Positions 35,271 through 55,145 of a stretch of 64,000 bases of DNA are shown here, piece by piece (positions within the stretch are counted from its first letter, which is position 1; each line of letters opens with the position of its first letter). The stretch spans positions 8,626 to 72,625 of the forward strand of contig JAEEYV010000052.1 of assembly GCA_016288295.1 (NCBI GenBank), written 5' to 3'. This DNA is from Alphaproteobacteria bacterium. Its GTDB lineage: Bacteria; Pseudomonadota; Alphaproteobacteria; RF32; CAG-239. The position numbers and the translations under genes were made by a program. Below the pieces are notes generated by a model. The model searched no databases. It was not told the DNA's origin and was given only the letters and a program-made list of their open reading frames with translations.

Positions 35271-36140
35271 ATGTTACTACATTTACTACTTAATACTTTG
35301 ATCGTTGGAGCCGGATACGGCTTAACGGCTATGGCGTTTCGCTTGATGTATTCTGTCTCACCGTTTTTTAATATGACATTAGGTGCTGTTGCTGCGCTAG
35401 GTGCTTATACTGCTTATGGATTAATCTCTTTGTGCGGATTGCCTATGTGGGTTGGGGTTATCGGCGCAATAGCCGCCTGTGCTTTGTTTTCATACTTTTT
35501 GGAGGCCGGAATTTATACGCCGATGCGTAATCATGGTGCATCATCAATGGTATTGATGGTAGCATCATTAGGCGTTTATACAATATTTGAGTCAATAATT
35601 TTACTGGTTTTTGGTCCGCAATACCAAAATTTGGGTTCTATTCAATCAGCAACAACCGTCAATTTAGGTTTCGCAAGTATTCCTTTGGTTCAAGCTTTAA
35701 CAATTGTTGCTTATTTTGTTTGTTTTGGCTTCTTAAACTACTTATTGCACCATACATTTATTGGTCTAAAAATCCGTGCCGTTCACGATAGTGCCTCTCT
35801 GGCCAACACAATCGGGATGAAAAACAACCAAATTATTTTATTGGTATCGGTTTTAACCGGAGTGGTGCTGGGTGTCAACGGGGTTTTAATCGGTTATGAT
35901 ACTGGTATGGTGCCTACAATGGGATTTAATCTGTTGTTCAAAGGTATGATTGGTGCGATCATCGGTGGATTAGCCAATATGCGTGGTGCATTCTTTGGGG
36001 CGCTGTTCCTGGCATTTGCAGAAAATGTCGGTGTGCTGATTTTTGCATCAGAATGGCGTGATTTGATAGCCTTTGTTATCTTTATTACATTTTTATCTTT
36101 ACGTCCGAAAGGGATTTTTCAAAAAAAGGAGATTAATTAA
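35271..36140 (+). CDS. livH: branched-chain amino acid-type ABC transporter permease
   Basis: 289-aa polytopic protein with a LivH-like N-terminus (LNTLIVGAGYGLTAMAFRLMY). Its stop overlaps the next ATG (TAATG). Confidence 0.85.
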   Translation: MLLHLLLNTLIVGAGYGLTAMAFRLMYSVSPFFNMTLGAVAALGAYTAYGLISLCGLPMWVGVIGAIAACALFSYFLEAGIYTPMRNHGASSMVLMVASLGVYTIFESIILLVFGPQYQNLGSIQSATTVNLGFASIPLVQALTIVAYFVCFGFLNYLLHHTFIGLKIRAVHDSASLANTIGMKNNQIILLVSVLTGVVLGVNGVLIGYDTGMVPTMGFNLLFKGMIGAIIGGLANMRGAFFGALFLAFAENVGVLIFASEWRDLIAFVIFITFLSLRPKGIFQKKEIN

Positions 36141-37231
36141 TGAAAAAACTGATTTTAGGTTTATGTGCTGTACTTGCATTATCAGCTTGTAAGGATGAAA
36201 AAAAGAACGTTGTGCAAGCAGACACCAGACCTGTGATAAAAGTGGGTGCAAGCCTTCCGTTGACAGGTAATATGTCAGATATTGGTATTTCTGCACAAAG
36301 ATCTCTACAACTAGCGCTGGATGAATGGAATCAAAGAGATACAAAAAATAAATATGAGCTTATTGTAGAAGATGATGGCTTTGATGCCAAAAAAGTAGCA
36401 ATGATTACGCATAAATTGGTTAATCAGGACAAAGTAAAAGCTGTTTTTACTGTTTTTTCAATAGGAGCTAATGTTGTTAGCCCGATTACTCAACAGGATA
36501 AAATTATTCATATGACTTGCGCATACGGTTCACAACCGGCAGAAGGGTTTTACAATTTTAACAATATTACACAGTACGAAAATCAAACAGAATTAATGCT
36601 TAAAGAACTTAAAAAAAGAGGTATTAAGTCAATAGGAATGTTGATTTCTAATAATATTGGTTCGACACAGCAAGCAGAAATTTTGGAAAACAAAATTAAG
36701 CAAGATGGAACAATAAAAATTATCGGAAAAGAAATTTTTAATCCTGGAACAATAGATTTTAGGATGATTATTCAAAAAATAGTTGCCAATGGTGAGCCGG
36801 ATATTTTTTATGTTGATGGTATTACTCCTGATGCCACTCTTGTTTCTAAGTATTTGAAAGAAGTCACGGGAAAAATAAATTTGACAACGATTAATGATTT
36901 TATTGAAACGCCAAAAAGAGAAAGTTTTGAAGGATTATGGTTTGTTGAATCTGCATCAGGAACAGATGAGTTTAATAATAAGTTTGAAAATAAGTATGGA
37001 GAACCGGTCTTTTTGTGCGGTGCCAATACTTATGATAATTTAGATTTATTTATAGAAGCATGTGAAAAATCAGAACATTGCGATAGTGACGAGGTTGTAA
37101 ACAACTTGCTTTCTGTTAACAATAGGAATGGAGCCATTGGAAAATTTTCTATTGATGATCAGGGGATAGTGCAATCCGAAGCTAGCGTTAAAAAAATTGA
37201 AAACGGTAAAGCTATCAAAGTAGAGGAGTAA
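36140..37231 (+). CDS. Liv-type (PBP type 1) substrate-binding lipoprotein, paralog 1 of 14
   Basis: MKKLILGLCAVLALSAC lipobox, followed by RPVIKVGASLPLTGNMSDIG. Confidence 0.85.
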   Translation: MKKLILGLCAVLALSACKDEKKNVVQADTRPVIKVGASLPLTGNMSDIGISAQRSLQLALDEWNQRDTKNKYELIVEDDGFDAKKVAMITHKLVNQDKVKAVFTVFSIGANVVSPITQQDKIIHMTCAYGSQPAEGFYNFNNITQYENQTELMLKELKKRGIKSIGMLISNNIGSTQQAEILENKIKQDGTIKIIGKEIFNPGTIDFRMIIQKIVANGEPDIFYVDGITPDATLVSKYLKEVTGKINLTTINDFIETPKRESFEGLWFVESASGTDEFNNKFENKYGEPVFLCGANTYDNLDLFIEACEKSEHCDSDEVVNNLLSVNNRNGAIGKFSIDDQGIVQSEASVKKIENGKAIKVEE

Positions 37232-37235
37232 AAGT

Positions 37236-38342
37236 ATGAAAAAACTGATTTTGAGTTTATGTGTAATTCTGACATTAACAGCCTGCAAAGATGAAAAAAA
37301 GAACGTTGCCCAAGCAGACACAAGACCTGTGATCAAGATCGGTGCGACATTACCATTGTCCGGAGATTTGTCTTATGTCGGTATTGGAGCACAGAATGCA
37401 TTGCAGATGCTATTAGAAAAATGGCAAAATCAGAATACAAAATATAAATATGAGTTGCTTTTTGAAAATGATATGGTTAAGCCTCAACAAGCAGCTATAA
37501 ATACTCAAAAGTTCATTAATATGGATAAAGCAAGAGTTGTTGTTTCGGTTTTTGGTATTGTTGATAGGCCGGTTGATGAAATTGCCAATCAGAATAAAAT
37601 TATTTCACTGTCATGTTCGCATGGAAAAAGAAATATTCCTGAATATGGACTTAATACCGGAATGCAAAATGAAGAAAATTATGCTGAAGCTCTGAGACAA
37701 TTGAAAAAAAGAAATGTCAAAACAGTCGCTTTAGTAGGAAGCCATGCGGCAGTTAGTAATGTCATTCTGGACTATATGGCAGAGCATCTACCTCAAGATA
37801 ATATCCAAGTTTTAGCTAACGAACGATATGCTATTGGTGAAACTGATTATCGGCTATCCATCCAAAAAATCGAAGATATGAAACCTGATTATTATCTTGT
37901 TTTCGGAGTTGAGCCGATGAATAGTATTTTTGTTAAGCAATATAATGAATTAACCGGTAAAAACAATATCGCGGGACTGGGAACTTTTTGTAATATAGAT
38001 TCAAAGGTTTTTCCCGCAATTGAAGGAGTTTGGTCTACTGATTTTGTAGGAAATAATGAAACTTTTGTAAAGGAGTACTCAAATAAATATCATACCCGCG
38101 TAGAAGTTTGTTCTGCTAATCTTTATGATGGATTAGACATGATAATAACAGCATTTGAAAATACGCCTGTTGAAGGAAATGCGACTATTCCCAATAACTT
38201 TGCAGTTATGAAAAACATAAAAGAACAGAAAGTTTGGAACGGAGCCAGTGGTAAGATTAAAATTGAAGAAAATGGAATTGTACGGTCTGAAGTAAAATCC
38301 CGTATATATAAAAATGGTCAATGGGTAAAAACTGAGGAGTAA
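37236..38342 (+). CDS. Liv-type substrate-binding lipoprotein, paralog 2
   Basis: LTAC lipobox, followed by RPVIKIGATLPLSGDLSYVG. Confidence 0.85.
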   Translation: MKKLILSLCVILTLTACKDEKKNVAQADTRPVIKIGATLPLSGDLSYVGIGAQNALQMLLEKWQNQNTKYKYELLFENDMVKPQQAAINTQKFINMDKARVVVSVFGIVDRPVDEIANQNKIISLSCSHGKRNIPEYGLNTGMQNEENYAEALRQLKKRNVKTVALVGSHAAVSNVILDYMAEHLPQDNIQVLANERYAIGETDYRLSIQKIEDMKPDYYLVFGVEPMNSIFVKQYNELTGKNNIAGLGTFCNIDSKVFPAIEGVWSTDFVGNNETFVKEYSNKYHTRVEVCSANLYDGLDMIITAFENTPVEGNATIPNNFAVMKNIKEQKVWNGASGKIKIEENGIVRSEVKSRIYKNGQWVKTEE

Positions 38343-38346: not shown

Positions 38347-39447
38347 ATGAAAAAGCTGATTTTGAGTTTATGTGTAATTCTGACATTAACAGCCTGCAAA
38401 GATGAAAAAAAGAACGTTGCCCAAGCAGACACAAGACCTGTGGTCAAGCTTGGTGCAATTTTACCGCTAACTGGTTCTCAAGCTCCTATGGGAGAAGCCG
38501 CAAAAGCAGGTATGCAAAAAGCATTGAAAGAGAACACTAATCCAAATCAGCACTATGATTATCAGCTTGTTTTTGAAGATAACCAAGCAAAACTGCCATC
38601 CATGCCGACAATCGCCAATAAAATGGTTATGCAGGATAATATTGATGTTTTAGGAACTATAACGACCGCTATGGCAAGGGTTATTGCGCCGATTTCCGAC
38701 CAAAAAGAAAAAGTGTTATATGCTTTTTCTATCGAGCAAGAAAAATATCAACGTTTTGGTAAATATGCTTTTACTCAAGGTACATCTATTGAAGCACTTA
38801 GCGACAAATTTGTGGAATCATTTGCCAAGAACAATCAAGATAATATCTCGATTTTTGTTGAAAATATAGGTGTACTTGGTCCTCTAACTTCCTATTTGAA
38901 AACAAAATTAAATGAAAAAGGTATTAACCATAAAATCAATGAATTTAACCCGGGTGAAACTGATTTTCGTATTGCCATTGAAAAAACAAAAGCTGACGGA
39001 TACACAAATTTTGGTGTTTTTGCTTTTCCACCTGAAAGAAATATCATTATGAAACAGCTCTTGGAAGCAGGCATTTCATATAATAATTTCTATTCCTTTA
39101 GTTTAGATATGGATTATGTCGCAGAAAATTATGATGGAATAAAAACTATTACTTATAACTGCGGAACAGAAGATTTTGTAGAAAGTATTCAAAAAGAATA
39201 TAATATTGACAGTACCTACGGTTCAGCGGAATTTTATGATTTTGTTAGCATGATGATTGAAGCTTATGAAGCTCTTTATAAAGAGGGACAGAAACCAACG
39301 GCTGAAGAAATTGTTTCATATATTCATAATAAAAAAGAGTTTCCTTGTATGAGCGGTCAATGTGTTGTTCATTCCAATGGCTTTATAATTAATGATCCGA
39401 TTCTCAGAATTTATACAAATAATAAATGGAAAACTATTGAAGAATAA
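38347..39447 (+). CDS. Liv-type substrate-binding lipoprotein, paralog 3
   Basis: LTAC lipobox, followed by RPVVKLGAILPLTGSQAPMG. Confidence 0.85.
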   Translation: MKKLILSLCVILTLTACKDEKKNVAQADTRPVVKLGAILPLTGSQAPMGEAAKAGMQKALKENTNPNQHYDYQLVFEDNQAKLPSMPTIANKMVMQDNIDVLGTITTAMARVIAPISDQKEKVLYAFSIEQEKYQRFGKYAFTQGTSIEALSDKFVESFAKNNQDNISIFVENIGVLGPLTSYLKTKLNEKGINHKINEFNPGETDFRIAIEKTKADGYTNFGVFAFPPERNIIMKQLLEAGISYNNFYSFSLDMDYVAENYDGIKTITYNCGTEDFVESIQKEYNIDSTYGSAEFYDFVSMMIEAYEALYKEGQKPTAEEIVSYIHNKKEFPCMSGQCVVHSNGFIINDPILRIYTNNKWKTIEE

Positions 39448-39477: not shown

Positions 39478-40200
39478 ATGTATGACAGCGAATTTTGGGA
39501 TGATGTTTATAAAAAAGGATTTATTCCATGGTCAGATGAGAATAAGGATAACTTTTTTGTTAAAAAAATCATACAGGATGTAGAGCCGGAACGATCTGCC
39601 GAAATTTTAGATTATGGTTGTGGTGAAGGAATACTCGGAAAATATTTTTTAGAACGTGGTTTTAAGGTAGATTTTGCTGAAATATCAAAAATCCAAGTTA
39701 ATGCGTTAAGAAAAAAATTTGGTAATCGAAGTACAGTGTATGCCGTTAATGAGCCACAAGACATTGAACACAAATATGATCTCATTATATGCAGCTCTGT
39801 GATGCATCACATTGAACCGCAAAGATGGGGAAGTTTTCTAAAACAATTTAGGGAATTACTCAAAAAAGGCGGTGTTCTATGGGTATCCGGTCTTGATGAA
39901 AATGATAAAATATTTGAACAATATCATGGTATTGCTCCGGCGACAGGGCACAAATGTTGGACTATTAATGATTTGGGAAGAATTGCTGAAAAGAACGGTT
40001 TTGAAATTTCAGCAAGCTATGTTCAAGATATTAAAATTGATGCTTTTGAAACCCCTCGAATGACGCGTGTTTTTTGCTTAAAACCTAAAACTAAGCAATT
40101 AAAGGATAAAAGTAGGCCTGCGAGTGAGGGAAATAATGACGATTTATCTTCACAAATTACAACACAAAGTATCTTAGATAAAAAAAGGCTACAAAGATGA
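39478..40200 (+). CDS. class I SAM-dependent methyltransferase embedded in the liv operon
   Basis: ILDYGCGEGILGKYFLERGFKVDFAEIS. The N-terminal FWDDVYKKGFIPW is TPMT/TehB-like, judged by eye. Confidence 0.7.
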   Translation: MYDSEFWDDVYKKGFIPWSDENKDNFFVKKIIQDVEPERSAEILDYGCGEGILGKYFLERGFKVDFAEISKIQVNALRKKFGNRSTVYAVNEPQDIEHKYDLIICSSVMHHIEPQRWGSFLKQFRELLKKGGVLWVSGLDENDKIFEQYHGIAPATGHKCWTINDLGRIAEKNGFEISASYVQDIKIDAFETPRMTRVFCLKPKTKQLKDKSRPASEGNNDDLSSQITTQSILDKKRLQR

Positions 40201-40245: not shown

Positions 40246-41112
40246 ATGGAATATTTAATAAATCTGGCAATACTTTTTGGCATATACAGCATGTTGGCAT
40301 TGTCGCTTAATATGCTCATCGGCATGAGCGGGTTGGTATCTTTGGCGCAGGCCGCTTTTTATGGTATCGGTGCTTATGCTACGGCAATCGGCATGACCAC
40401 ATTTGGATTAGGATTTTTTACTACCATTATTTTAGGTATTGTCGTCAATGCAATATTGGCCTTTGTAGTCGGTAAGATTTTAGCTCGTTTCCAAGGAGAT
40501 TATTATGCCATTGTTTCCGCCGGATTATCAATTATCGTATTTTCAATCCTGCAAAACTGGAAAACTGTTACACACGGCCCGCTGGGCATTTTTGGAATTG
40601 GTAAACCTGCAATTGGCTCATATACTTTTTATTCCAATACTGCGTTTTTAGGTTTGGTTGTAATATTCACAATTGTTTTATACGCATTGTATCAGTGGAT
40701 AAACCATTCTTCTTTCGGCCGAGTTTTAAAAGCTCTGCGCGAAGATGAAAAATTGGCGCAATCTATGGGATACAAAACTAAACACTTTAAGAGTGTGATT
40801 TTTGTATTGTCGGCCTCCTTATCAGGTATCGCCGGTGCATTTTTTGCTAGTTATATTGCTTTTATTGATCCCTCAAGTTTCCAACTTAAAGAAGGTATTT
40901 TCTTATTCACTATTATTATTGTCGGGGGACTATCTTCGGCAAGAGGAAGTGTGGTCGGAGCATTGATCCTGATCTCCTTGCCGGAAGTATTACGTTTTAT
41001 TGGGTTGCCATATGAAACAGCTGCCCAACTTCAGCAAATGATATACGGCGCAATGCTGTTGTTGATGATGATTTTCAAACCGCAAGGTTTGTTTGGTAAA
41101 TATCGGATGTAA
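40246..41112 (+). CDS. livM: branched-chain amino acid-type ABC transporter permease
   Basis: 288 aa with a LivM-like segment SMLALSLNMLIGMSGLVSLAQAAFYGIGAY. Confidence 0.85.
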   Translation: MEYLINLAILFGIYSMLALSLNMLIGMSGLVSLAQAAFYGIGAYATAIGMTTFGLGFFTTIILGIVVNAILAFVVGKILARFQGDYYAIVSAGLSIIVFSILQNWKTVTHGPLGIFGIGKPAIGSYTFYSNTAFLGLVVIFTIVLYALYQWINHSSFGRVLKALREDEKLAQSMGYKTKHFKSVIFVLSASLSGIAGAFFASYIAFIDPSSFQLKEGIFLFTIIIVGGLSSARGSVVGALILISLPEVLRFIGLPYETAAQLQQMIYGAMLLLMMIFKPQGLFGKYRM

Positions 41113-41114: not shown

Positions 41115-41933
41115 ATGATGAAAAAGATTAAAGACATACTAAATTTTAGAAAACAGCAAACTGTGCCGGTGTGTGATATCAATCCGCCGTCGGCCTACGG
41201 TTCGAACATAATCACCATTAAAGACCTTACCAAGCAATTTATGGGGATTAGAGCGATTGACGACCTTTCGGTCAACATTCCTCAAGCGATGACCATCGGT
41301 CTTATTGGTTCCAACGGTTCCGGAAAAACGACACTTGTTAACATCTTAACCGGAATGTTACGTCCCGACGCCGGAGAGATAACTGTTCGCGACAAAAAAC
41401 GTTCGCATATTAAAGCCAACGAACTCCGCAAATATCGTATTGCTCGCACTTTTCAAGATGGTCGCTTGATTGAACAAATATCTGTCGTTGATAACTTATT
41501 ATTATCTGTAGCAGAAAATGATTTAGTCGACAGCCTCAAAGAGGTTTCTATCAAAGACTATCAGGATCGTCTAGAAAAAGTACTGGAAATGACATCTTTA
41601 ACCGAACATCGTCATAAGAATGCCGAAGAACTGTCTTATGGTCTGCGAAAACTTTTGGAAATTGGCCGTGTGTTGATGCAAGATGCAGATATATACTTTT
41701 TCGATGAACCATTTTCCGGCTTGTTCCCAGAAATTGTTGAGCAAGTCTGTGAAATCATTTGCGGACTGCAGAAACAAGGCAAAACAATAGTGATTATTGA
41801 ACATAATATGGGGTTAATCCGCCGGTTGTGCAATTATACAATAGTGCTTAATCACGGTAAATTATTAGCAGAGGGAAATCCTGAAGAAGTTCTGCAAAGC
41901 AAAGCTGTTCGAGAGTCTTATTTAGGAGTTTAA
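41115..41933 (+). CDS. livG: ABC transporter ATP-binding protein
   Basis: Walker A GSNGSGKTT, signature LSYGLRK, Walker B IYFFDEP. Confidence 0.85.
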   Translation: MMKKIKDILNFRKQQTVPVCDINPPSAYGSNIITIKDLTKQFMGIRAIDDLSVNIPQAMTIGLIGSNGSGKTTLVNILTGMLRPDAGEITVRDKKRSHIKANELRKYRIARTFQDGRLIEQISVVDNLLLSVAENDLVDSLKEVSIKDYQDRLEKVLEMTSLTEHRHKNAEELSYGLRKLLEIGRVLMQDADIYFFDEPFSGLFPEIVEQVCEIICGLQKQGKTIVIIEHNMGLIRRLCNYTIVLNHGKLLAEGNPEEVLQSKAVRESYLGV

Positions 41934-41948: not shown

Positions 41949-43037
41949 ATGAGAAAATGGTTGTTGGTTTTATGTGCTGTTTTAGCACTCACGGCTTGCG
42001 ATAACAAAAAGGAAGCAACGGAAGCTGATAATAAACCTGTTGTTAAGATTGGTGTAATGTTGCCGTTGAGTGGCGAAATGGCAGAGTTTGGTCAAAACAG
42101 TCTTTATGCGGTTGAGTTTGCTGCAGAAGACCACAAAGATTCTCCCATAAAGTTTGATATTATTTTTGAAGATGATACATTTACTCCCTCAAGAGCTGCG
42201 GTGATAGCAAATAAATTCATCAGTGTTGATAAAGTTGATGCCATTGTCACCAGTTTTTCGCCGGTTGGTTCAGCGGTGTCGCCGATTGCAGATAAAGCCA
42301 AAGTATTACACATTGGCTTATCTAATGCGGCTAATATTGCCGAAGGAGAGTTGAATTTTACTGATTGGCAAGAATTAGATATTGCTGCTAAAAAATTGGT
42401 AGATTATTTGGTGTCGCAAAATTGCAAAAAAGTAGTGTCTTTCAATATGGAAACAGTAGGCAACGAAGAAATGCGCGTAAAAACCAACCAGTTTTTGGAT
42501 GAACGTGGCATAGAGTATAAAGAATTTTACTTCAACCCAGATAATAGTGATTTTGCACTTATGATTCAAAAAGCTCTGGATTTTGATGCGGATTATTGGA
42601 TTTTAAACAGCTTTTCTCCAGGACAGGATATTTTGCGCAAAAAAATGATTGAACAAAAAATCGATATTCCTGTAGTTAATATCCAGTGTATGAAGTTATC
42701 GAAAAATCTGCAATTGTTTGAAAATCAAGCTTTTGTTGATGCACCAGACGGCAGTAAAGAGTTTAGAGAGCGTATGGCAAAAAAGACTACATCAAAAGTT
42801 TTGAATATACCTGCATATGCTTATGATATAGTAGATCTTATCATGAAAGCCAACGAAGATTTTTATGTCAAGAATGGCAGAGTTCCTAATGATTATGAAC
42901 TGGCCGATACATTAAAGAAAACAAAATTTTATGATGGTATCGTTGGAAAGTTGGAGATTCAGGATAATGGAGTCATAAAATCGCCGTCAGTTATAAAAAA
43001 GATTATTGATGGTAATGCTGTAATAATTGATGATTAA
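41949..43037 (+). CDS. Liv-type substrate-binding lipoprotein, paralog 4
   Basis: LTAC|D lipobox, followed by KPVVKIGVMLPLSGEMAEFG. Confidence 0.85.
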   Translation: MRKWLLVLCAVLALTACDNKKEATEADNKPVVKIGVMLPLSGEMAEFGQNSLYAVEFAAEDHKDSPIKFDIIFEDDTFTPSRAAVIANKFISVDKVDAIVTSFSPVGSAVSPIADKAKVLHIGLSNAANIAEGELNFTDWQELDIAAKKLVDYLVSQNCKKVVSFNMETVGNEEMRVKTNQFLDERGIEYKEFYFNPDNSDFALMIQKALDFDADYWILNSFSPGQDILRKKMIEQKIDIPVVNIQCMKLSKNLQLFENQAFVDAPDGSKEFRERMAKKTTSKVLNIPAYAYDIVDLIMKANEDFYVKNGRVPNDYELADTLKKTKFYDGIVGKLEIQDNGVIKSPSVIKKIIDGNAVIIDD

Positions 43038-43061: not shown

Positions 43062-44153
43062 ATGAAAAAACTGTTTTTGGAATTATGCATAATCTTAGCA
43101 CTCATTGCCTGTAAAGATGAGAAGAAAGAAGTTGCGCAGGCAACAACCAAGCCTGTTGTTAAAATCGGGGTCTTGTACCCTTTGTCTGGCGACGGTGCAA
43201 GCCTGGGTGAGGCTGGCAAAGCTACTGCAAACATGTTTTTTGAAGAATTTAATCGCCAACCCCATAAGTTTGATTATGAAGTTATTTTTGAAGATAATCA
43301 AAACGAGCTGTCCAAGCAGGCAATATTAGCGCGAAAGTTGATTGATGCAAATAAGGCAGACGTATTAATTACAGCCATGTCTAATTTTGGTGCTGTTGTT
43401 TCTCCATTGGCTGAACAGCATAAAGTTATGCATGTTTCAGTAGCTACTGATCCGACAGTAGCAAACGGAAAATATAATATTATTACATCTTCTGATCCGG
43501 CAGGAGAGGCCGAATTATTGTATACACAATTGAAAAAACGTGGCGCAGAAAATATTGATATTATTGTTATGAACGCTACTGGCTCCCAAACAATGCTTGA
43601 TTATTTTCAAACAAAAGTCAAAAATGGGCAAGATCTAAAAATCGGACAGATATACCATGTTAATCCCGATGAAAAAGATTTTCGCACAATGCTAATCAAA
43701 ATAAAGGAAAATAATCCTGATTACATTGTTGCTTTTCTATTTATGCCGGTAATTGATGTGTTTATGAAACAATATCAAGAGTCTGGTATTAATATTCCCG
43801 TAACCGGTATCGAAACTTTTACTTATCTGCAAAATCGAGAATGGGCTGAAGGTGTATGGTATGTAGACGCCGCATCAGCAACAGATGATTTTATAACTAA
43901 ATACCGAGCTAAAACTGGAAAAACATCAACGGATTATGCTGAATATATGGATTTTGCTCTGCAAATGATAACTTTCGGTTATGAAGGAGCCGGCACAACC
44001 GACAAAGAAAAAGTGATAAATTACATCCAGGACAATAGTGCTGGACAGATAACCGCCGTTGGTCAAATAACCACCGAACCAGACGGCATCTTAAACGGTC
44101 AACCGGTTATTAAAAAAATTATCAATGGCGAACCAGTTATTGTCAAGGAGTAA
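43062..44153 (+). CDS. Liv-type substrate-binding lipoprotein, paralog 5
   Basis: LIAC lipobox, followed by KPVVKIGVLYPLSGDGASLG. Confidence 0.85.
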   Translation: MKKLFLELCIILALIACKDEKKEVAQATTKPVVKIGVLYPLSGDGASLGEAGKATANMFFEEFNRQPHKFDYEVIFEDNQNELSKQAILARKLIDANKADVLITAMSNFGAVVSPLAEQHKVMHVSVATDPTVANGKYNIITSSDPAGEAELLYTQLKKRGAENIDIIVMNATGSQTMLDYFQTKVKNGQDLKIGQIYHVNPDEKDFRTMLIKIKENNPDYIVAFLFMPVIDVFMKQYQESGINIPVTGIETFTYLQNREWAEGVWYVDAASATDDFITKYRAKTGKTSTDYAEYMDFALQMITFGYEGAGTTDKEKVINYIQDNSAGQITAVGQITTEPDGILNGQPVIKKIINGEPVIVKE

Positions 44154-46341: not shown

Positions 46342-47433
46342 ATGAAAAAACTACTTTTAAGTTTATGCATGATTTTAGCACTAACGGCCTGTAAGGATGA
46401 AAACCAACAAACCGCACAAGCAACCACGAAGTCTGTTGTTAAAATTGGTGCATCTTTTCCATTAACCGGAAATATGGCTTCGATTGGTAATGCTGCACAT
46501 AAGGCCTTAACAGCAGCTATCAACGACGCTAATTCAAATCCTGATAATAAGTATCATTATGAATTGACGATTGAAAATGACCAGATGGATCCTAAAGCAA
46601 TTAACAATATAGCAAATAAATTTCTGTTTTCTGATAAAGTTAACGTGATTGTTTCATATTTTTCAGTTGCAAATCGTATTGTAGCCCCTCTGGCAGCTAA
46701 ACATAAGATTATTAACTTTATGTTTGGTTTTGGTGACGATTCGCTACTGAGTATATATAATTTTCAAAATTTCTTAACAGTTGAAGCTGAAAATGCCGCA
46801 GTTATTGACTTTCTAAAATCAAAGAATGTATCAAATGTTGATTTAATATACCAAAATATTGGTGCAGCAGATGAGTTTTTAAAACCGCTTTTACCACTAT
46901 TAGATGCTGAAAATATTGCATATACCATACATCGCTTTAATAAAGAGGAGCGAGATTTTTCCACTTTGATTTTCAAAATCAAGAATTCCCCATCTCAAGC
47001 AGTCTTTATCTATGCTTTTGAACCGGAAGCTGATATTTTAACCAAAGAACTTAAACAGCAGAAGGTTGATAAAATAGTTGCTTATAATGATGGTTTACCG
47101 ATGACTACTAATTATGCATTATATGAAGGATATTATAATGTTGGTTCAATTTTAACTCCTGCCATATATCAAAAGGCTTGGGGATTAGAAGGACAAAATG
47201 CCGCGTATGCTACATATTTATATGATTCCGGAAAAATTATAGTTGATGCCTTTGAAAATGCACCAACAGCAAATAAAATTCCTACATCTGATGAAGTCGC
47301 TGAGTACCTGTTAAGCAGAACGAAATACCAAGGTATTACCGGAAAATATACGTTAGACAGCAAAGGGCAGTTCCACTCAAAGGGACAAACAAGTATTGTC
47401 AAAAACGAACAAATGGTAGTTTATGAGGAGTAA
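46342..47433 (+). CDS. Liv-type substrate-binding lipoprotein, paralog 8
   Basis: LTAC lipobox, followed by KSVVKIGASFPLTGNMASIG. Confidence 0.85.
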   Translation: MKKLLLSLCMILALTACKDENQQTAQATTKSVVKIGASFPLTGNMASIGNAAHKALTAAINDANSNPDNKYHYELTIENDQMDPKAINNIANKFLFSDKVNVIVSYFSVANRIVAPLAAKHKIINFMFGFGDDSLLSIYNFQNFLTVEAENAAVIDFLKSKNVSNVDLIYQNIGAADEFLKPLLPLLDAENIAYTIHRFNKEERDFSTLIFKIKNSPSQAVFIYAFEPEADILTKELKQQKVDKIVAYNDGLPMTTNYALYEGYYNVGSILTPAIYQKAWGLEGQNAAYATYLYDSGKIIVDAFENAPTANKIPTSDEVAEYLLSRTKYQGITGKYTLDSKGQFHSKGQTSIVKNEQMVVYEE

Positions 47434-47436: not shown

Positions 47437-48534
47437 ATGAAAAAACTACTTTTAAGTCTATGCATACTTTTAGCACTAACGGCCTGTAAGGATGAAAACC
47501 AACAAACCGCACAAGCAACCACGAAGCCTGTTGTTAAAATCGGAGCCATGTTACCGATGACCGGTGGTATTGCTCATATTGGGGAAGGTGGCAGAAACGG
47601 AGCTTTGATGGCTATTGAAAAACTTAACTCTTTGCCTGACAATAAATACAAGTACGAGTTTGTTTATGAAGATATAGGCTATTCTCCTGACAAAACATTA
47701 GCAATTTATAACAAACTCACATATATTGATAAGGTAGTAGCTCTTACATCATTTAATACCGCAGCTGGTAAGATTATTAAACCATTAGCCGCAAAAGATA
47801 AAATTATACATATATCTTCCGCCGTAGATAACACAATAAGTGACAATGTTTTTAATTATGTTAATAGTTATTCCATAAAAGAGACTTCAGAACGCCTGGT
47901 TGAATATATGAAAACTCACCAGATGAAAACCATCAGCCTTGTTGCATTTAATCATCTTTCCACAGAATCCGTATTACAAGAATTAGAGCCGATTTTAAAA
48001 TCTAATGGGATAGAGATATTATCAGTAAATCGATTTAACATGGAACAACTTGATTTCAAGATGGAAGCATTGAAAATTAAACAAGAAAATCCTGATATGG
48101 TTTTTATGCATTTGGTTGAGCCCAGCATGACTTTGTTTTCAAAACAATTGCTAGATTACGGTTACACCGGCAAGTTGAGCTCATTTCTGCTGTTTATATA
48201 CAGCAATAATCCCGAACTGTTTAATGGTCAAATTGTTGTTGATTTGAAAGATGCAACTGAAGACTTTAATCAGAGATATCGTGATAAATTTGGGATTGAA
48301 GCTCAGGCCGCCAGCATCAATACTTATGACAATGTAATGATTATAGGTACATTTATTGAAAAATATGGTATACCGCAAAAAGTAGATGCAACAACTATGG
48401 GAACACTTATGAAAAATGTTATCGAAAATTATGAAAGCCCGAGAGGGAAAATGTTATTAGATAACGGACTAATTTATTCAAATACTATTGTTAAAACAAT
48501 TAATTCCGGCAAACCAGTTAACATTGAGGAGTAA
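47437..48534 (+). CDS. Liv-type substrate-binding lipoprotein, paralog 9
   Basis: LTAC lipobox, followed by KPVVKIGAMLPMTGGIAHIG. Confidence 0.85.
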   Translation: MKKLLLSLCILLALTACKDENQQTAQATTKPVVKIGAMLPMTGGIAHIGEGGRNGALMAIEKLNSLPDNKYKYEFVYEDIGYSPDKTLAIYNKLTYIDKVVALTSFNTAAGKIIKPLAAKDKIIHISSAVDNTISDNVFNYVNSYSIKETSERLVEYMKTHQMKTISLVAFNHLSTESVLQELEPILKSNGIEILSVNRFNMEQLDFKMEALKIKQENPDMVFMHLVEPSMTLFSKQLLDYGYTGKLSSFLLFIYSNNPELFNGQIVVDLKDATEDFNQRYRDKFGIEAQAASINTYDNVMIIGTFIEKYGIPQKVDATTMGTLMKNVIENYESPRGKMLLDNGLIYSNTIVKTINSGKPVNIEE

Positions 48535-48538
48535 AAAT

Positions 48539-49618
48539 ATGAAAAAACTACTTTTAAGTTTATGTATGATTTTAGCACTTGTTGCGTGTAAAGATGAGAA
48601 AAAACAAACCGCACAAGCCCAAAATAAGCCCGTTGTTAAAATCGGTGTTAGTTTGCCATTGACAGGTGATATGAGTAATATTGGTACGGTACTAAAAGGA
48701 AGTGTCGATATTGCAAATCAGGATTTAACAAAAAGAAACTTAAGAAATCAATATCAATTTATCATAGAGGATAATGCCTTTGACCTTAAAAGGGTAGCAC
48801 TGGTTAATCAAAAACTTTTGAACGTGGATAAAGTTGATGCAATTATTGATTTTGCTTCTAAAATTGGTCTTGCTACTTCACCAATTGCAGAACAAAATAA
48901 AATTCTACATATTTCATCTTGCGCTTCAGACCCTAAAGTGGCTGAAGGAAAATATAATTTTATTCATTGGACCCAGACACCAAGCGAAGTTAAAAAACTT
49001 GTTGAGAAAATAGTTAATGAAAAGTTGGATAACATAGTTATTTTCACGGCAGTAGATCAAGCAACTCTAGAAATCTCAAGGAATTTACAACATTTACTAC
49101 AAATGAATGGTATTAATTTTAAGGAGATTAAAACAAATCCTAAAGAGTTGGACTTAAATTTGGTTTTGAATAATATTTCTTCTTATAATCCTGGCTTATA
49201 TGTACTGTTGGAATATTCTCCTACATTAGATGTTATTCTGAAAAGACTCGAAGAAAATCAAAACACTGTTCCAGTAACATCTATTGAAACATTTAGTTTT
49301 CTTGATGATAAAAAAGTTATAGAGGGATTCTGGTTTGTTGATGCTGCGGAACTGAATGATGATAACTACAAGAAATTTACTTCTTACAATAAATCCGAGA
49401 ACATTTTTGCCGTAGGTAATACGTATGATGCAATTATGCTATTGGTTGACGCTTTTGAAAAAGCCGAGACTAAAGAAAAAGCCGTAGAGAAATTATCTGA
49501 AATAAAAACATATCAAGGCGTTGTTGGACAGCTCTATCAGGATGATGATGGAATATTTAATTCTGAAGCAATTTTGAAGAAAATAGTTAATGGCAAACCA
49601 GTTAACATTAAGGAGTAA
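48539..49618 (+). CDS. Liv-type substrate-binding lipoprotein, paralog 10
   Basis: Start at ATG 48539 (MKKLLLSLCMILALVAC). Confidence 0.85.
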   Translation: MKKLLLSLCMILALVACKDEKKQTAQAQNKPVVKIGVSLPLTGDMSNIGTVLKGSVDIANQDLTKRNLRNQYQFIIEDNAFDLKRVALVNQKLLNVDKVDAIIDFASKIGLATSPIAEQNKILHISSCASDPKVAEGKYNFIHWTQTPSEVKKLVEKIVNEKLDNIVIFTAVDQATLEISRNLQHLLQMNGINFKEIKTNPKELDLNLVLNNISSYNPGLYVLLEYSPTLDVILKRLEENQNTVPVTSIETFSFLDDKKVIEGFWFVDAAELNDDNYKKFTSYNKSENIFAVGNTYDAIMLLVDAFEKAETKEKAVEKLSEIKTYQGVVGQLYQDDDGIFNSEAILKKIVNGKPVNIKE

Positions 49619-49622: not shown

Positions 49623-50702
49623 ATGAAAAAACTACTTTTAAGTTTATGTATGATTTTAGCACTTACTGCCTGCAAGGATGAAAACAAACAAACTGCACAA
49701 ACAAATAGCAAACCTGTTATTAAGATTGGTATTATTGCGCCATTAACCGGCAATGTGGCCATGGTCGGTGAGGGAATTAAGAGCTCTATTGTTTTGGCCG
49801 AAGAAGATTTGAAGACGAAAAATCTCAAAAATAAATACGAATTTGTTATTGAGGATGACGGTTACGAAGCCCGCAAAACTGCAGCAGTTTATCCCAAGTT
49901 AAAGTCACTGGATAAAGTTGATGCCATTTTGAGTACTTTCTCCCAAACCGGAAAAATTATTGCTCCTCGCGCTGAAGCCGACAAGATACTTCACATAAGC
50001 TTGTCATCTGATGCCGAAATTGCAAACGGCAAATATAACTTTTTGGACTGGACAATGCCTAAATACACTTCCGGTCGTATGGTTGAGTTTTACAAAAAGC
50101 ATGGATTCAAAAACATTATAGCCATTATACCTAACAATGATGGTACATTGAGTGTTGAAGAAAAATTTATGGAGTGGATAAACCAAAACAAAGATATGCA
50201 TGTAACCCGTTTTTTAGTTTCGCCGACAGAAACTGATTTTAGAACGATTCTTGCCAAAGCAGCTCAGAAAAAAGCAGATGTTTATCTGGCTATGGTGTAT
50301 GGCAATATAGCTGCTTCATTTTTTAAGCAATACAAAGAAAGCGGAGAAACAGCGCCAATCACGAGTATTGAAACTTTTGCCACTTTGTCTGATCCCTCAA
50401 TCGCTGAAGGTGCATATTATACAGATGCCGCTGTTGCTAACGATGATTTCATGGAAAGGCATCAGCAACGTTTCGGTCAAATTTCTCGATATGGTGTAGG
50501 TACAATGTATGACATGATTATGCTGACAGTTGAAGCTTTTGAAAATGCCAAAGATAAAAGTTCTGCTGTTGATGAATTGGCAAAGATAAAACAATACAAT
50601 GGCGTTGTCGGCACACTAACGCAAGATGATGAAGGTATTTTCAATTCTGAAGCGGTTTTGATGAAAATCGAAAACGGAAAAGTAATAAAGGTTGAGGAGT
50701 AA
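49623..50702 (+). CDS. Liv-type substrate-binding lipoprotein, paralog 11
   Basis: Start at ATG 49623 (MKKLLLSLCMILALTAC). Confidence 0.85.
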   Translation: MKKLLLSLCMILALTACKDENKQTAQTNSKPVIKIGIIAPLTGNVAMVGEGIKSSIVLAEEDLKTKNLKNKYEFVIEDDGYEARKTAAVYPKLKSLDKVDAILSTFSQTGKIIAPRAEADKILHISLSSDAEIANGKYNFLDWTMPKYTSGRMVEFYKKHGFKNIIAIIPNNDGTLSVEEKFMEWINQNKDMHVTRFLVSPTETDFRTILAKAAQKKADVYLAMVYGNIAASFFKQYKESGETAPITSIETFATLSDPSIAEGAYYTDAAVANDDFMERHQQRFGQISRYGVGTMYDMIMLTVEAFENAKDKSSAVDELAKIKQYNGVVGTLTQDDEGIFNSEAVLMKIENGKVIKVEE

Positions 50703-50706
50703 TAAT

Positions 50707-51801
50707 ATGAAAAAACTACTTTTAAGTCTGTGCGTACTTTTAGCACTCATCGCCTGCAAAGATGAGAAAAAAGAAGCTACACAAGCAAATATAAAACCAA
50801 TAGTAAAAATCGGCGCCTCGTTACCTCTGAGCGGAGATATGGCTGAAACAGGTAAAAACCTGCAATCAGCAATGTCTTTAGCATTAAAAGATGAGCAAGC
50901 CAGACAAAATCTGAAATATGAATACCAGCTTGTTTTTGAAGATGACCAATATGATGTTAAGAAGGCACTTAGTAATTGGAACCTGTTTAAATCAGTCAAA
51001 AATGTTGATGCAATATTTACTTTATGGGGGACGATGGGGCGCATTGCTTCTGATTTTGCGGAAAAAAATAAGATTATCCATATGAGTTGTGGCTTGTCTT
51101 CAGATGTTGCTAAAGGATTTTATAATTTTAATAATGCAACAAAACCGATTACTCATGCGGAAAAGATTGCAACTTTTTACCAAAGTAAAGGTGTCAAGAA
51201 TTTGGCTTTATTTTATTATAACTGCGCTGAGTTCGATGACTTTTTACCGCTCTTTCGCCAAAAACTGCAAGAAAAGGGAATTAATATCATATCAGAAACT
51301 GCCGTTAACTCCACGGACACTGATTTAACAATTCCGATGGCAAAAGTTAAAGAGCTTAATCCAGACATGTTACATGTTCAGCTTATTCCACCACAAGCAG
51401 GAATTTTTGCTAAAACCTTAAAAAAATTGGATTGGAACATAGAAATTGGTAATTTAAATGATTTGCTTTTAAGTGCAGATTATTTTGATGGAGCCTATAT
51501 TTTTCAAGATGACACTGGAACACCTGAATTTGGTAAGCATTTTGAAGAAACAACCGGACAACGCGTTATTGGTTGCTCCGCCAATTTCTACGATAATGTT
51601 CGCATGATTATTGATGCGTATGAGCATATCAGTAATGGCAAAACTTTGCCGACAAGAGAAGAAGTTGTATCTTATATTTTGAATAACAAGAATTTCAAAT
51701 CTTCGTTCAGACAATCCAACATTGATAATGAAGGACATATTGATACACCATCAATCGTTAAACAGCTAGAGAATGGAAAGCTAAAGGAAATAGAGGAATA
51801 A
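50707..51801 (+). CDS. Liv-type substrate-binding lipoprotein, paralog 12
   Basis: Start at ATG 50707 (MKKLLLSLCVLLALIAC). Confidence 0.85.
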   Translation: MKKLLLSLCVLLALIACKDEKKEATQANIKPIVKIGASLPLSGDMAETGKNLQSAMSLALKDEQARQNLKYEYQLVFEDDQYDVKKALSNWNLFKSVKNVDAIFTLWGTMGRIASDFAEKNKIIHMSCGLSSDVAKGFYNFNNATKPITHAEKIATFYQSKGVKNLALFYYNCAEFDDFLPLFRQKLQEKGINIISETAVNSTDTDLTIPMAKVKELNPDMLHVQLIPPQAGIFAKTLKKLDWNIEIGNLNDLLLSADYFDGAYIFQDDTGTPEFGKHFEETTGQRVIGCSANFYDNVRMIIDAYEHISNGKTLPTREEVVSYILNNKNFKSSFRQSNIDNEGHIDTPSIVKQLENGKLKEIEE

Positions 51802-52830: not shown

Positions 52831-53529
52831 ATGCTTGAACTAAAAAACATAAAAGCCGGATATGGTAAAAAGGTTGTACTGGACGATGTTTCCGTAACAT
52901 TGAAGGATAACACCATTACCGTAATTATGGGTGCAAACGGAGCCGGAAAATCAACACTGCTCAAAACAGCGTATGGCTTGTTAAAACCTATGGCGGGAGA
53001 TATTTTGCTCGATGATAAAAAAATTACCGCTTCTCCGCAATCATATGTAGAACAAGGTATTTTCTGTGTTCCGCAAGGAAAGCGTGTTTTTCGCAATCTT
53101 ACGGTTATGGAAAACCTTGAACTGGCAACCCATTTTTGGAAAGATAGATCGGCTTTTCCCCAACGTCTGGAAGAAATATTGATCCATTTTCCTGATTTGA
53201 AATCACGTTTAAGTGATTTGGCGGGAAATCTCTCCGGTGGCCAACAACAAATGGTTGCTTTGGCTCGCGGTCTGATTAACAAACCGCGTATGGTGTTTAT
53301 GGATGAACCTTCAATCGGTCTGGCTCCCAAGCTGACATCAGATACTTTTCATAAAATCAAAGAACTGAAAGATGCCACTGGAACCGCCTTTGTAATTGTG
53401 GAGCATAATCTCAAAACTTTACTTCCATTGACCGACTGGGCATATATCTTGGAGCAAGGTCAAGTTGTCTATGACGGCAAGTCGTCAGGCAAAACCCTGG
53501 AAAAAATGCTTTCCTCGGTGTTTAAATAA
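52831..53529 (+). CDS. livF: ABC transporter ATP-binding protein
   Basis: Walker A GANGAGKST, signature LSGGQQQ, Walker B VFMDEP. Confidence 0.85.
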   Translation: MLELKNIKAGYGKKVVLDDVSVTLKDNTITVIMGANGAGKSTLLKTAYGLLKPMAGDILLDDKKITASPQSYVEQGIFCVPQGKRVFRNLTVMENLELATHFWKDRSAFPQRLEEILIHFPDLKSRLSDLAGNLSGGQQQMVALARGLINKPRMVFMDEPSIGLAPKLTSDTFHKIKELKDATGTAFVIVEHNLKTLLPLTDWAYILEQGQVVYDGKSSGKTLEKMLSSVFK

Positions 53530-53558
53530 AATAGTTGAACTCAATGAAAGGTATTCAG

Positions 53559-54635
53559 ATGAAAAAAATTTTGCTAACATTGCTTATGATTTTAACGATA
53601 GCCGCCTGTGATGATAAAAAAGAAACAGCTAAGCCGATTATTAAAATAGGGGTAGTAGATGCTTTGAGCGATAAATATGCGGAAAACGGGCAGAACGTAC
53701 GACAAGTTATCGAATTTGCCAAAGAAAATTTTGCCTCTTCCGGTCTTGATTTTGAGTTCATATTTGAAGACTATGGATATGAAACAAAGCGCGCTGCAGT
53801 TGCGGCAAATAAACTAATTAATGCCGATAGGGTAGATGCGCTGATAAGCTGGAGCTCTATGGCCGGGAACGTAGTTTCGCCATTGGCAGACAGAGCAAAA
53901 AAGGTCCATTTAGCTATTTGTAATGATGAAAATGTTGCTAAAGGAAAGTATAATTTCACTCACTTTACGCCTTCTCAAATTCTGGCTCAAAAGTTGGTTA
54001 AGCAAATAGAAGATACAAAGGCACAAAAAGTTGCTTTGTTTGCAGTATATCAACCGGCATTACAAAAACATACCGATGCCGTTGAAAAAATACTGCAGGA
54101 AAAGGGGATCGCTACCGAACGTTTTAACTTCAGTATGGATAATTTGGATTTTGACCTAATGTTGGAAAAAGCTCAACAACATAATTTTGATGTTTGGTAT
54201 ATATGCGCTTTGCCACCTAGCTTAGATGTTTTCTTAAAAACATATTTTTCAAAAAAGATTGATACACCGCTAGTTGCAATTGATTCATTGCTTTTTGCTC
54301 AAGACAAAGCTTCTGTAGAAGGAATGAAATTTGTTACAACTCCTGACGGCAATAAAGAATTATTACAAAAACTGACAGCCACCAATGGTTCAACCAACTA
54401 TTTTTCAGTTGGATATGCTTATGATGTTGCCAACCTTTTAATGATGGCATATACAAATCTGTATAAAGAAAATAAACGTGTTCCGACATCCGATGAAGTT
54501 GCGGATTATTTGCTTCAACTCAAAGGATATAACGGAGCTGTAGGCGAACTGGTTATAGGTTCTGACGGCGTCATTATGTCGCCGGCCGTTGTAAAACAAA
54601 TGAAAAATGGACAACCTGTTGAAGTGGATGAATAA
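53559..54635 (+). CDS. Liv-type substrate-binding lipoprotein, paralog 14
   Basis: Start at ATG 53559 (MKKILLTLLMILTIAAC|D). Confidence 0.8.
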   Translation: MKKILLTLLMILTIAACDDKKETAKPIIKIGVVDALSDKYAENGQNVRQVIEFAKENFASSGLDFEFIFEDYGYETKRAAVAANKLINADRVDALISWSSMAGNVVSPLADRAKKVHLAICNDENVAKGKYNFTHFTPSQILAQKLVKQIEDTKAQKVALFAVYQPALQKHTDAVEKILQEKGIATERFNFSMDNLDFDLMLEKAQQHNFDVWYICALPPSLDVFLKTYFSKKIDTPLVAIDSLLFAQDKASVEGMKFVTTPDGNKELLQKLTATNGSTNYFSVGYAYDVANLLMMAYTNLYKENKRVPTSDEVADYLLQLKGYNGAVGELVIGSDGVIMSPAVVKQMKNGQPVEVDE

Positions 54636-54638
54636 AAA

Positions 54639-55145
54639 ATGAAAAAACTTATTGTTTTATTATGCTGTTTTGTAACCGGAATTGCCCACGCCTCTATCAA
54701 AGGTGAGGGGATCCATTTTGATGCTGATGAAGAATTTTTGTCGGCATTTGAAAATTGTATTCCTTATACTCCTATGGTTCGCAGTCGGGAAGAAATTACC
54801 CCAAAAGAGTTAGGCCCTGACTATGCGTACATTGAGGTTATCGGCCAACAGGGAGATAAATGTATTTTCAACTGGATTGGGCAGATGTCAACTCCGAGGT
54901 TATATTCAAAAGTAGTTAAACGTTGTACCATTACAATGGGTGAACAATTACCGATAATAGAGGGAATACAAAATATTCCCAATGATAAGGGTAGTAAATA
55001 CATGCATGCCTTAGATAAAGTTATGGATAATTGTAAAATGATAGAAGATATCACACTGCCAAATTCTGACGAAGATATTGATACAGGTTATATAACACTG
55101 CCGGAAAAAGACGGAAAAGTACAATTACCTGAAGGCTGCAGGTGA
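54639..55145 (+). CDS. hypothetical secreted protein; last gene of the liv-type operon
   Basis: The signal peptide is MKKLIVLLCCFVTGIAHA|S. It starts 3 nt after the preceding stop. Confidence 0.6.
   Translation: MKKLIVLLCCFVTGIAHASIKGEGIHFDADEEFLSAFENCIPYTPMVRSREEITPKELGPDYAYIEVIGQQGDKCIFNWIGQMSTPRLYSKVVKRCTITMGEQLPIIEGIQNIPNDKGSKYMHALDKVMDNCKMIEDITLPNSDEDIDTGYITLPEKDGKVQLPEGCR

Follow-up and report, generated by a model that had tools for sequence, protein, structure and literature searches.

ATP-binding cassette (ABC) importers are usually pictured as one transporter served by one or two receptors, or by scattered orphan receptors. Importers with several receptors are already known, as exemplified by LivJ/LivK, Borrelia OppA1-3 and Bmp, and GlnPQ. 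In the E. coli LivJ/LivK-LivHMGF system, in other HAAT importers (TC 3.A.1.4) and in the Rhizobium Bra system with BraC and BraC3, more than one binding protein can serve a single translocator. The GlnPQ importer of Lactococcus lactis carries two substrate-binding domains fused in tandem per permease subunit, and in Borrelia the tandem genes oppA1-A2-A3 lie upstream of oppBCDF. In Borrelia burgdorferi, the bmpD-C-A-B genes encode four tandem lipoprotein substrate-binding proteins (SBPs) with complementary specificities (PMC13325309). The locus analyzed here, on the forward strand at positions 35,271 to 55,145 of a 64,000-nucleotide stretch (the window) of contig JAEEYV010000052.1 from an Alphaproteobacteria bacterium, encodes one HAAT-type importer together with 14 SBPs. 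The evidence presented below makes it probable that these receptors are swappable, membrane-tethered cassettes on a single importer, exchanged by homologous recombination at the junctions between their genes.

A first-pass annotation of the window, made from the sequence and its open reading frames (ORFs), had proposed a single Liv-type translocator accompanied by 14 divergent SBP lipoprotein genes. That composition stands: the gene order is as described, the families are confirmed by Pfam, and a profile search of the whole 64-kb window yields exactly one H, M, G and F gene and no SBP beyond the 14. All 14 SBPs score above the gathering threshold of Pfam Peripla_BP_6 (57-134 bits against a cut-off of 31.7; E-values of 3e-15 to 2e-38), as expected from their proposed assignment to a solute-binding family, and their pairwise identities of 21-43% agree with the earlier estimate of well under half identical positions. 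SBP starts were re-set to MKK codons preceded by good Shine-Dalgarno sequences, since several of the mechanically listed ORFs start 5' of the true MKK start, and the resulting proteins are 340-368 aa long. Intergenic gaps, previously given as 0-30 nt, in fact range from -1 to 45 nt, the longest separating the methyltransferase gene from livM. The reported lack of internal terminators is consistent with the number of terminator-like matches, 15 against 12.8 +/- 3.1 in shuffled controls, and promoter-like matches within the operon do not exceed shuffled expectation either (79 against 78.8 +/- 7.9). The 14 SBP genes and the transporter genes are thus likely to form a single operon read as one transcript, which may start at a candidate promoter 5' of livH (Table 1), a consensus match of a class that is not enriched over shuffled sequence. 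An Rfam scan of the window detects tRNAs only, with no riboswitch or leader RNA ahead of the operon.

The importer displays the defining features of HAAT systems, with two BPD_transp_2 permeases and two separate ATPases, the LivG-like one carrying a BCA_ABC_TP_C domain. None of its H, M, G, F or SBP proteins attains an NCBIfam Liv or Urt equivalog cut-off (LivM, 162 against 366; UrtD, 190 against 304; UrtE, 191 against 286). The locus is hence a member of the HAAT (LivHMGF-type) family and not the orthologue of a characterized system. It is chromosomal, and its flanks are occupied by housekeeping genes, encoding ValRS, LysRS, LexA, LysA, glycogen enzymes, AnmK and FTHFS.

When the junctions between SBP genes are aligned, strong conservation of the DNA sets in about 40 nt ahead of each stop codon and extends some 100-130 nt beyond the start of the next gene; the gene bodies are not conserved. 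At nine of the ten SBP-SBP junctions, the last two codons and the stop read GAGGAGTAA, AAGGAGTAA or GAGGAATAA, the next ATG follows 3-4 nt on, and the Shine-Dalgarno sequence of the downstream gene lies inside the C-terminal EE (or KE/LE) codons of the upstream one. Most SBPs end in Glu-Glu, encoded by GAGGAG and followed by TAA (for instance at the junctions 37223-37238, 48526-48541 and 50694-50709). The Glu-Glu codons therefore double as a Shine-Dalgarno sequence, so that translation of the neighboring gene constrains the C-terminus of the protein, and this placement suggests that consecutive genes are translationally coupled. Downstream of the ATG, the leader of about 100-130 nt encodes the signal peptide and lipobox Cys, followed by a disordered tether whose last residues are KPVVKIG. 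The longest exact matches between junctions span 87 nt (SBP2/SBP3), 59 nt (SBP8/SBP9) and 45 nt (SBP10/SBP11), and exact sharing of at least 20 nt is seen in 17 of the 91 junction pairs, and of at least 25 nt in nine. Between bodies, the longest exact match is 18 nt.

The conservation of leaders does not follow the relationships of the bodies that they precede. Across nine genomes and 95 genes, with the leader defined as the first 99 nt, paralogs from the same genome share 73% of the leader and 30% of the mature protein, orthologues from different genomes share 69% and 73%, and non-orthologues from different genomes share 69% and 30%, respectively. The leaders are visibly genome-specific: the best leader match lies within the same genome for 58 of the 95 genes, against 11 expected, and belongs to the same receptor type for six. 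Best matches that are local to the genome and rarely of the same type indicate that the leader evolves in concert within each genome, uncoupled from the body it exports.

Further evidence comes from related loci, designated here by L numbers. Two conspecific contigs from bovine metagenomes, L085 and L086, match the window at 95-99% identity yet differ from it in their cassettes. In both, the type 10 receptor of the window is swapped for a type i receptor and a second type 5 gene (5'), identity to the window stopping at position 48670, 132 nt into SBP10, and the novel cassette is 100% identical across these two independent assemblies. The type 12 receptor is absent from L085, where the remaining junction matches the leaders of both SBP12 and SBP13. 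In L086, the type 7 receptor has been replaced by another allele: identity is 100% up to the SBP7 ATG at 45248, drops to about 70% across SBP7 and the initial ~100 nt of SBP8, and returns to 100% from about 46444. A similar pattern is observed between species. The livH, livM and livG genes of the window and L001 differ at synonymous sites with proportions (pS) of 0.67-0.81, whereas pS in the SBP2 body is 0.24; SBP2 and its L001 counterpart (L001_S7) are 62-76% identical in the leader and 92-98% identical in nucleotide sequence from +107 to the stop, with unrelated flanks. In L024, from a more distant rumen lineage, LivM and LivG are 66% and 58% identical to those of the window, and several SBP types reach 70-80%. 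Replacements at both the strain and the species level have their breakpoints exactly at the junction or where leader meets body, and the patterns in the conspecific contigs, L001_S7 and L024 concur in that bodies are mobile and leaders remain in place. Recombination is anchored in the conserved core formed by gene tail, Shine-Dalgarno sequence and ATG, together with the leader end encoding KPVVKIG. Since the junction repeats are in frame, every crossover yields complete genes.

Apparent reordering and variable content might instead be artefacts that the ~100-nt junction repeats introduce into short-read assembly and binning, given that the comparison loci, with the possible exception of the window, are contigs from metagenomes or metagenome-assembled genomes (MAGs) and that these repeats extend up to 87 nt. 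All but the nine junction pairs noted above nevertheless share less than 25 nt of exact sequence, well under the final assembly k-mers of 105-141, and independent samples and assemblers agree, both among L001, L002 and L088 and between L085 and L086 with their identical novel cassette. Moreover, species differ in the types they contain and not merely in their order, and no mis-join can generate a 70% allele between 100% flanks. An assembly origin of the differences is hence highly improbable.

Receptor types were delimited by all-against-all BLAST and single-linkage clustering at identities of at least 55%. Almost every SBP of the window groups with orthologues in other species at 63-92% identity, and 29 type groups have at least two members. 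Other species harbor types that the window lacks (a-j and more), and shared types change position, with the order 1-2-3 / 4-5-6-7-8-9-10-11-12-13 / 14 in the window and a-h-7-b-i-5-2-9-3 / 6-8-4-c-5-1-12... in L001. The receptor bodies belong to at least 25 old types, and the 14 genes of the window represent such types, not recent duplicates. This bears directly on a rival account of the array, in which ordinary tandem duplication and divergence generated the genes without any exchange, and purifying selection on signal peptide, lipobox and tether kept their leaders alike. Paralogs in tandem and in the same orientation are the usual product of duplication, leader peptides are functionally constrained, and leaders of adjacent genes are slightly closer than those of non-adjacent ones (75.0% against 72.4%). 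Such a process, however, does not account for 87 nt of exact identity, synonymous sites included, between genes with 30%-identical bodies, nor for orthologous bodies that bear non-orthologous, genome-specific leaders. It is also at odds with conspecific allele replacements and gene gains or losses that break at junctions, with species that share a 92-98% identical body despite the synonymous saturation of their transporter genes, and with paralogs as old as the clade itself. Duplication without exchange is accordingly unlikely, and exchange of bodies at junctions remains the preferred reading.

The exchanged bodies are functional receptor types. The ratio of nonsynonymous to synonymous differences (pN/pS) is 0.07-0.2 for orthologue pairs involving the window, with a median of 0.22 over 386 orthologue pairs, and these low values indicate that the SBP genes are maintained by purifying selection. 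Decay into pseudogenes, a possibility raised in the first-pass annotation, is ruled out by the 14 intact ORFs, by the low pN/pS and by the conservation of the short length of SBP13 in its orthologues.

Ligand pockets were mapped by aligning 139 SBPs of the clade with E. coli LivJ, using all core columns as comparison and 10,000 random column sets as control; the numbering of the LivJ sequence was checked against the known residues Y18, C78, S79, T102, Y202 and E226. At the ten ligand-contact columns of LivJ, conservation is 0.93 within types and identity 0.16 between types, against 0.85 and 0.28 for all core columns, a contrast that none of the 10,000 random sets matched (permutation p<1e-4). 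In this alignment, at about 20% identity, and among the LivJ residues that bind the alpha-amino acid (S79, A100, T102, Y202 and E226), types 5 and 7 retain S79, A100, T102 and E226, whereas S79, Y202 and E226 persist in types 10 and 11; the other ten types have them replaced. The types that do not resemble LivJ carry different but type-invariant pocket residues, as in type 6, which reads W/M/F/D/S/W/G/F/D/F in seven of seven species. The type-specific pocket columns lend support to the earlier presumption that the receptors bind different ligands, which is likely, and suggest that types 5, 7, 10 and 11 may take amino acids and the remaining types other ligands.

These observations also speak to the possibility that the array encodes variable surface or envelope proteins, such as adhesins or antigens on which host or phage exert pressure (as debated for Borrelia Bmp), instead of transport receptors. 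Lipoproteins with Lys at position +2 might reach the outer membrane, the repertoire does vary among strains, and the variable lipoproteins of Mycoplasma likewise combine a conserved leader with a variable body. In addition, the localization of the Borrelia Bmp paralogs is disputed (PMC13325309). Against this stand the strong purifying selection within types, with no sign of diversification, and the fact that pocket positions are at once the most type-specific and the best conserved. The genes are, furthermore, interleaved and probably translationally coupled with permease and ATPase genes, sister lineages exchange the lipobox for an N-terminal hydrophobic anchor that would hold the protein in the inner membrane, and neither an invertase nor silent cassettes or simple-sequence switches were seen. 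A role as surface variants is thus very unlikely. A phase or antigenic variation locus was likewise considered and rejected, all genes being full-length, in one orientation and provided with their own starts, with pN/pS of 0.07-0.2.

The receptors resemble binding proteins of known structure, and SBP1 is predicted to adopt the two-lobed alpha/beta fold of the LivJ/LivK type. A profile built from the 14 SBPs matches solved HAAT-type binders, namely Thermotoga maritima LivK (3TD9, 4e-37), the aromatic-acid binders of R. palustris (4EY3), the Brucella and pneumococcal Leu/Ile binders and E. coli LivJ. The AlphaFold (AF2) model of SBP1, the one receptor modelled, has a predicted local distance difference test (pLDDT) score of 90 and a Foldseek template modelling (TM) score of 0.80 to 3TD9, and of 0.77-0.80 to 4GNR, 4N0Q and 4EY3. 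Its structural neighbors bind amino acids, urea, aromatic acids, pyroglutamate, gamma-aminobutyric acid (GABA) or amides. Residues 18-30, approximately, are disordered in the model, which is consistent with a tether. It could be argued that many of the receptors act as sensors, in chemotaxis, two-component signalling or transporter regulation, and do not deliver substrates, as type I periplasmic binding proteins (PBPs) have sensory roles elsewhere and the fold matches of SBP1 include AmiC and the GABA-B receptor. Yet no signalling genes lie in or adjoining the operon, and neither the tether nor the coupling to transporter genes differs among the copies, leaving a sensory role for many of the receptors with very little probability.

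Inspection of the sequences against the lipobox pattern [LVI][ASTVI][GAS]-Cys identifies a lipobox (L-x-A-C or I-A-A-C) at residues 14-17 of all 14 SBPs, following MKK and a hydrophobic stretch, with the Cys at residue 17 and a slight shift in SBP14. The residue after the Cys is K in 11 receptors and D in SBP4, SBP7 and SBP14, as previously noted, and it had been suggested that these might be sorted to different membranes. This does not hold across species, because orthologues of types 4, 7 and 14 elsewhere mostly have K and other types have D or G. As a type-specific sorting signal, the +2 residue was rejected for its lack of conservation within types; it travels with the interchangeable leader and hence provides no evidence for paralog-specific sorting. 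We assume that the receptors are tethered at the inner membrane. In the distant arrays of the clade (L021, L023, L025, L038 and L052, from termite-gut and other MAGs), the SBPs have no lipobox Cys and open with MKKK, a hydrophobic segment of about 20 residues and R/P-rich residues, which suggests an uncleaved membrane anchor replacing the lipid anchor. In the Micavibrio locus L028, the single SBP starts with a cleavable signal peptide of the ordinary kind. Tethering would therefore seem to accompany arrays in two chemical forms, in a manner that fits receptors held at the inner membrane.

The distribution of arrays was assessed by scanning GTDB species genomes with a LivM alignment, which returned 80 LivM-matched loci, and by scoring stop-to-stop ORFs at each locus with the SBP profile and the H, M, G and F proteins of the window. 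The scan recovers a clade of uncultured Alphaproteobacteria with LivM 65-93% identical to that of the window, the remaining hits being distant and from other phyla. Members of the clade originate from roe-deer, yak and cattle rumen, the human gut (CAG:495, MGYG-HGUT-00610), chickens and farm animals ('Ca. Enterousia') and the termite gut. Among metagenome proteins, SBP9 has one match at 99% and a series at 52-77%, and those that are named are labelled 'MAG: Alphaproteobacteria bacterium'. Arrays are typical of this clade, with in-operon SBP counts of 0, 1, 3, 4, 6, 7, 8, 12, 13 and at least 16, and two extended loci contain 20 SBPs each, with eight in the H-M slot and 12 in the G-F slot (L017 with L087) or nine and 11 (L001 with L088). 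SBP genes occupy five slots: before H, H-M, M-G, G-F and after F. Operons of the clade with a single receptor are arranged H-S-M-G-F (L003, L020) or H-M-G-S-F (L022, L027), S denoting the SBP gene, and these layouts may be ancestral. In L023 and L052, the transporter genes themselves are rearranged as M-G-...-H-...-F, with livH downstream of livM and livG and SBP genes in between. LivM relatives sampled outside the clade have the order S-H-M-G-F and 0-2 SBPs, usually one, indicating that arrays are rare beyond it among the 80 loci. The first-pass annotation had asked if equally large arrays were common and already characterized in close relatives; they are indeed common, with up to 20 receptors, but no paper describing them was found. 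The literature search returned no description of such receptor arrays, subscription journals lying outside its coverage. Related Rs-D84/Enterousia genomes have been described as strongly reduced and auxotrophic (PMC12306168).

In the model that we favor, the operon of an uncultured rumen/gut alphaproteobacterium would encode one LivHMGF-type importer and host an expandable array of genes for lipid-anchored type I PBPs. Each cassette would comprise a junction module, made up of a conserved ~40-nt 3' tail, a Shine-Dalgarno sequence embedded in the terminal codons (GAGGAG-TAA), 3-4 nt of spacer and a ~100-130 nt leader, and a ~950-nt body encoding the ligand-binding domain, drawn from one of at least 25 old types. 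Gene conversion would keep the junction modules alike within a genome, and the modules would in turn act as in-frame sites of homologous recombination. Bodies could thereby be duplicated, deleted, reordered, allele-swapped or imported from related species, leaving export signals and translational coupling undisturbed. All receptor types would presumably dock on the single LivHM translocator, so that tethered receptors with differing pockets might deliver small nitrogen and carbon compounds to one LivHM-GF complex and provide each strain with a customized uptake spectrum from one pump. A more far-reaching proposal, which we regard as conceivable but put forward tentatively, is that the clade shares a pan-genomic pool of at least 25 ligand-specific bodies that move via the in-frame leader, akin to an 'integron without integrase', and that the leader with its built-in ribosome-binding site has been selected as a docking sequence. 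An integron mechanism proper was rejected, as attC sites would not fit into gaps of 3-4 nt and the window and neighboring genes scanned include no integrase.

Several considerations weigh against the cassette model. Nearly all comparison loci are metagenome assemblies, in which ~100-nt repeats could give rise to mis-joins, even if independent assemblies concur (L001 with L002 and L088; L085 with L086). The expression, localization and ligands of the receptors are predicted from sequence, and in E. coli a Lys after the lipobox Cys directs lipoproteins to the outer membrane, not to the inner membrane assumed here. The pocket mapping relies on an alignment to LivJ at about 20% identity, and single residue assignments may be one position off. 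It is supposed here that very different substrates pass through one translocator, which is plausible in view of Rhizobium Bra. Lastly, recombination in leaders might follow from the conservation of export signals and not be a selected design. Of the four alternatives discussed above, none explains the breakpoint and synonymous-site data.

Table 1. Features of the receptor array locus, in window coordinates
Feature	Coordinates	Strand	Remarks
Candidate sigma-70-like promoter, ATGAAA-17-TATAAT	35205-35233	+	10/12 consensus matches; in the 114-nt AT-rich gap 5' of livH
livH-type permease	35271-36140	+	Pfam BPD_transp_2 (PF02653) 1e-28; under NCBIfam LivH/UrtB equivalog cut-offs
SBP1 (type 1), lipoprotein	36140-37231	+	Peripla_BP_6 4e-33; orthologue in L001 80% identical
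SBP2 (type 2)	37236-38342	+	Peripla_BP_6; body from +107 nt to stop 92-98% nt-identical to L001_S7
Exact direct repeat, 87 nt	37245-37331 (SBP2 leader); copy 38356-38442 (SBP3 leader)	+	
SBP3 (type 3)	38347-39447	+	Peripla_BP_6 3e-15; orthologues 63-79% identical
Class I SAM-dependent methyltransferase, H-M slot	39478-40200	+	Methyltransf_23 6e-21
livM-type permease	40246-41112	+	BPD_transp_2 (PF02653) 5e-46; closest species 82-93% identical
livG-type ATPase	41115-41933	+	ABC_tran (PF00005) and BCA_ABC_TP_C (PF12399, residues 249-272)
SBP4 (type 4)	41949-43037	+	Peripla_BP_6
SBP5 (type 5)	43062-44153	+	Peripla_BP_6; LivJ-like S79/A100/T102/E226 kept in the alignment
SBP6 (type 6)	44158-45243	+	Peripla_BP_6
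SBP7 (type 7)	45248-46321	+	Peripla_BP_6; 70%-identical allele in conspecific L086
SBP8 (type 8)	46342-47433	+	Peripla_BP_6; first ~100 nt within block swapped in L086
SBP9 (type 9)	47437-48534	+	Peripla_BP_6; sole receptor type in the single-SBP operon of L003
SBP10 (type 10)	48539-49618	+	Peripla_BP_6; body swapped for types i and 5' in conspecific L085/L086
SBP11 (type 11)	49623-50702	+	Peripla_BP_6
SBP12 (type 12)	50707-51801	+	Peripla_BP_6; missing from conspecific L085
SBP13 (type 13), 340 aa	51806-52828	+	Peripla_BP_6; short length kept in orthologues
livF-type ATPase	52831-53529	+	ABC_tran (PF00005) 2e-31
SBP14 (type 14), slot after livF	53559-54635	+	Peripla_BP_6
168-aa Cys-containing ORF with signal peptide	54639-55145	+	3 nt after SBP14

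Two genes of the locus belong to neither the importer nor the receptors. The S-adenosylmethionine (SAM)-dependent methyltransferase between SBP3 and livM has further, weak TehB-, TPMT- and UbiG-like matches. It recurs in the same slot only in L086 (100% identical), L005 (62%) and L008 (52%), being absent from other arrays, and might modify an imported substrate. For the small ORF that follows SBP14, Pfam and NCBIfam yield no match, and its sole counterpart lies in the conspecific contig L085 (99%), an occurrence that probably rules it out as a part of the conserved system. Between this ORF and anmK, L085 carries three extra genes (8816-11038 of L085, against 55146-56145, or about 1 kb, in the window), encoding a 186-aa ORF, a LicD-family protein and an IspD/nucleoside triphosphate (NTP)-transferase-like protein, which constitute a second strain-level difference beside the array. 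On the 5' side of livH and on the same strand, a second class I SAM-methyltransferase is encoded at 33485-34276, followed, directly upstream of livH, by a queuosine-precursor transporter of the YhhQ family at 34452-35156 (TIGR00697, 1e-42). Elsewhere in the window, five head-to-tail tRNA genes lie 5-8 nt apart at 12886-13272 on the forward strand (Rfam tRNA, 48-66 bits). ARAGORN assigns non-standard anticodon loops to two of them (2-nt 'anticodons', and in one a 6-nt loop, TTCAAA), a tRNA-Tyr with anticodon ATA (A34) to another, and Arg-ACG and Lys-CTT to the others, a set that is odd for a chromosome.

If the functional part of the model is correct, small-genome host-associated bacteria could widen and rapidly change their nutrient range without duplicating membrane machinery, and receptor sharing and competition at one translocator would become testable. 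The array would also offer a natural collection of 25 or more related binding domains, each with its own conserved pocket, of use in ligand discovery and biosensor design, and would make modular gene exchange through a coding repeat amenable to study. In the literature searched, the scale of 14-20 receptors, their interleaving with transporter genes, the concerted junction module, the shuffling of cassettes and their exchange between species are undescribed, and each known system resembles the array in part.

The Vlp/Vsa lipoproteins of Mycoplasma undergo phase switching and repeat expansion under diversifying selection. They share with the array a conserved 5' signal peptide and lipobox, divergent tandem bodies and recombination among members, whereas the bodies are here enzyme-like binding domains under purifying selection and are probably co-transcribed with a transporter. 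As in integron arrays, the units are co-oriented, promoterless and of a single gene each, and their number, order and content vary among relatives and are shared across species; in contrast to integrons, exchange here would proceed by homologous recombination in coding leader repeats, and all cassettes belong to one protein family. Borrelia is likewise a host-dependent diderm, with tandem paralogous lipoprotein SBPs thought to serve one ABC transporter. Its paralogs number 3-4 against the 14-20 found here and belong to other SBP families (PnrA-like and cluster C), and we know of no report of cassette shuffling or leader homogenization between Borrelia strains. In GlnPQ, several tethered receptors that differ in specificity compete for a single translocator, and their local concentration is raised by the tethering, as would be the case here; there, two domains are covalently fused, whereas the array encodes separate and far more numerous lipoproteins. 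E. coli Liv and other HAAT importers have the protein families of all five component types, the fold and the presence of several receptors per translocator in common with the locus. They differ from it in having one or two receptors against 14 (and up to 20), in that these are soluble instead of lipid-anchored, and in the placement of their genes upstream of the transporter genes, where those of the array are interleaved among H, M, G and F. With respect to LivJ itself, only types 5 and 7, and in part types 10 and 11, keep the amino-acid-binding residues in the alignment.

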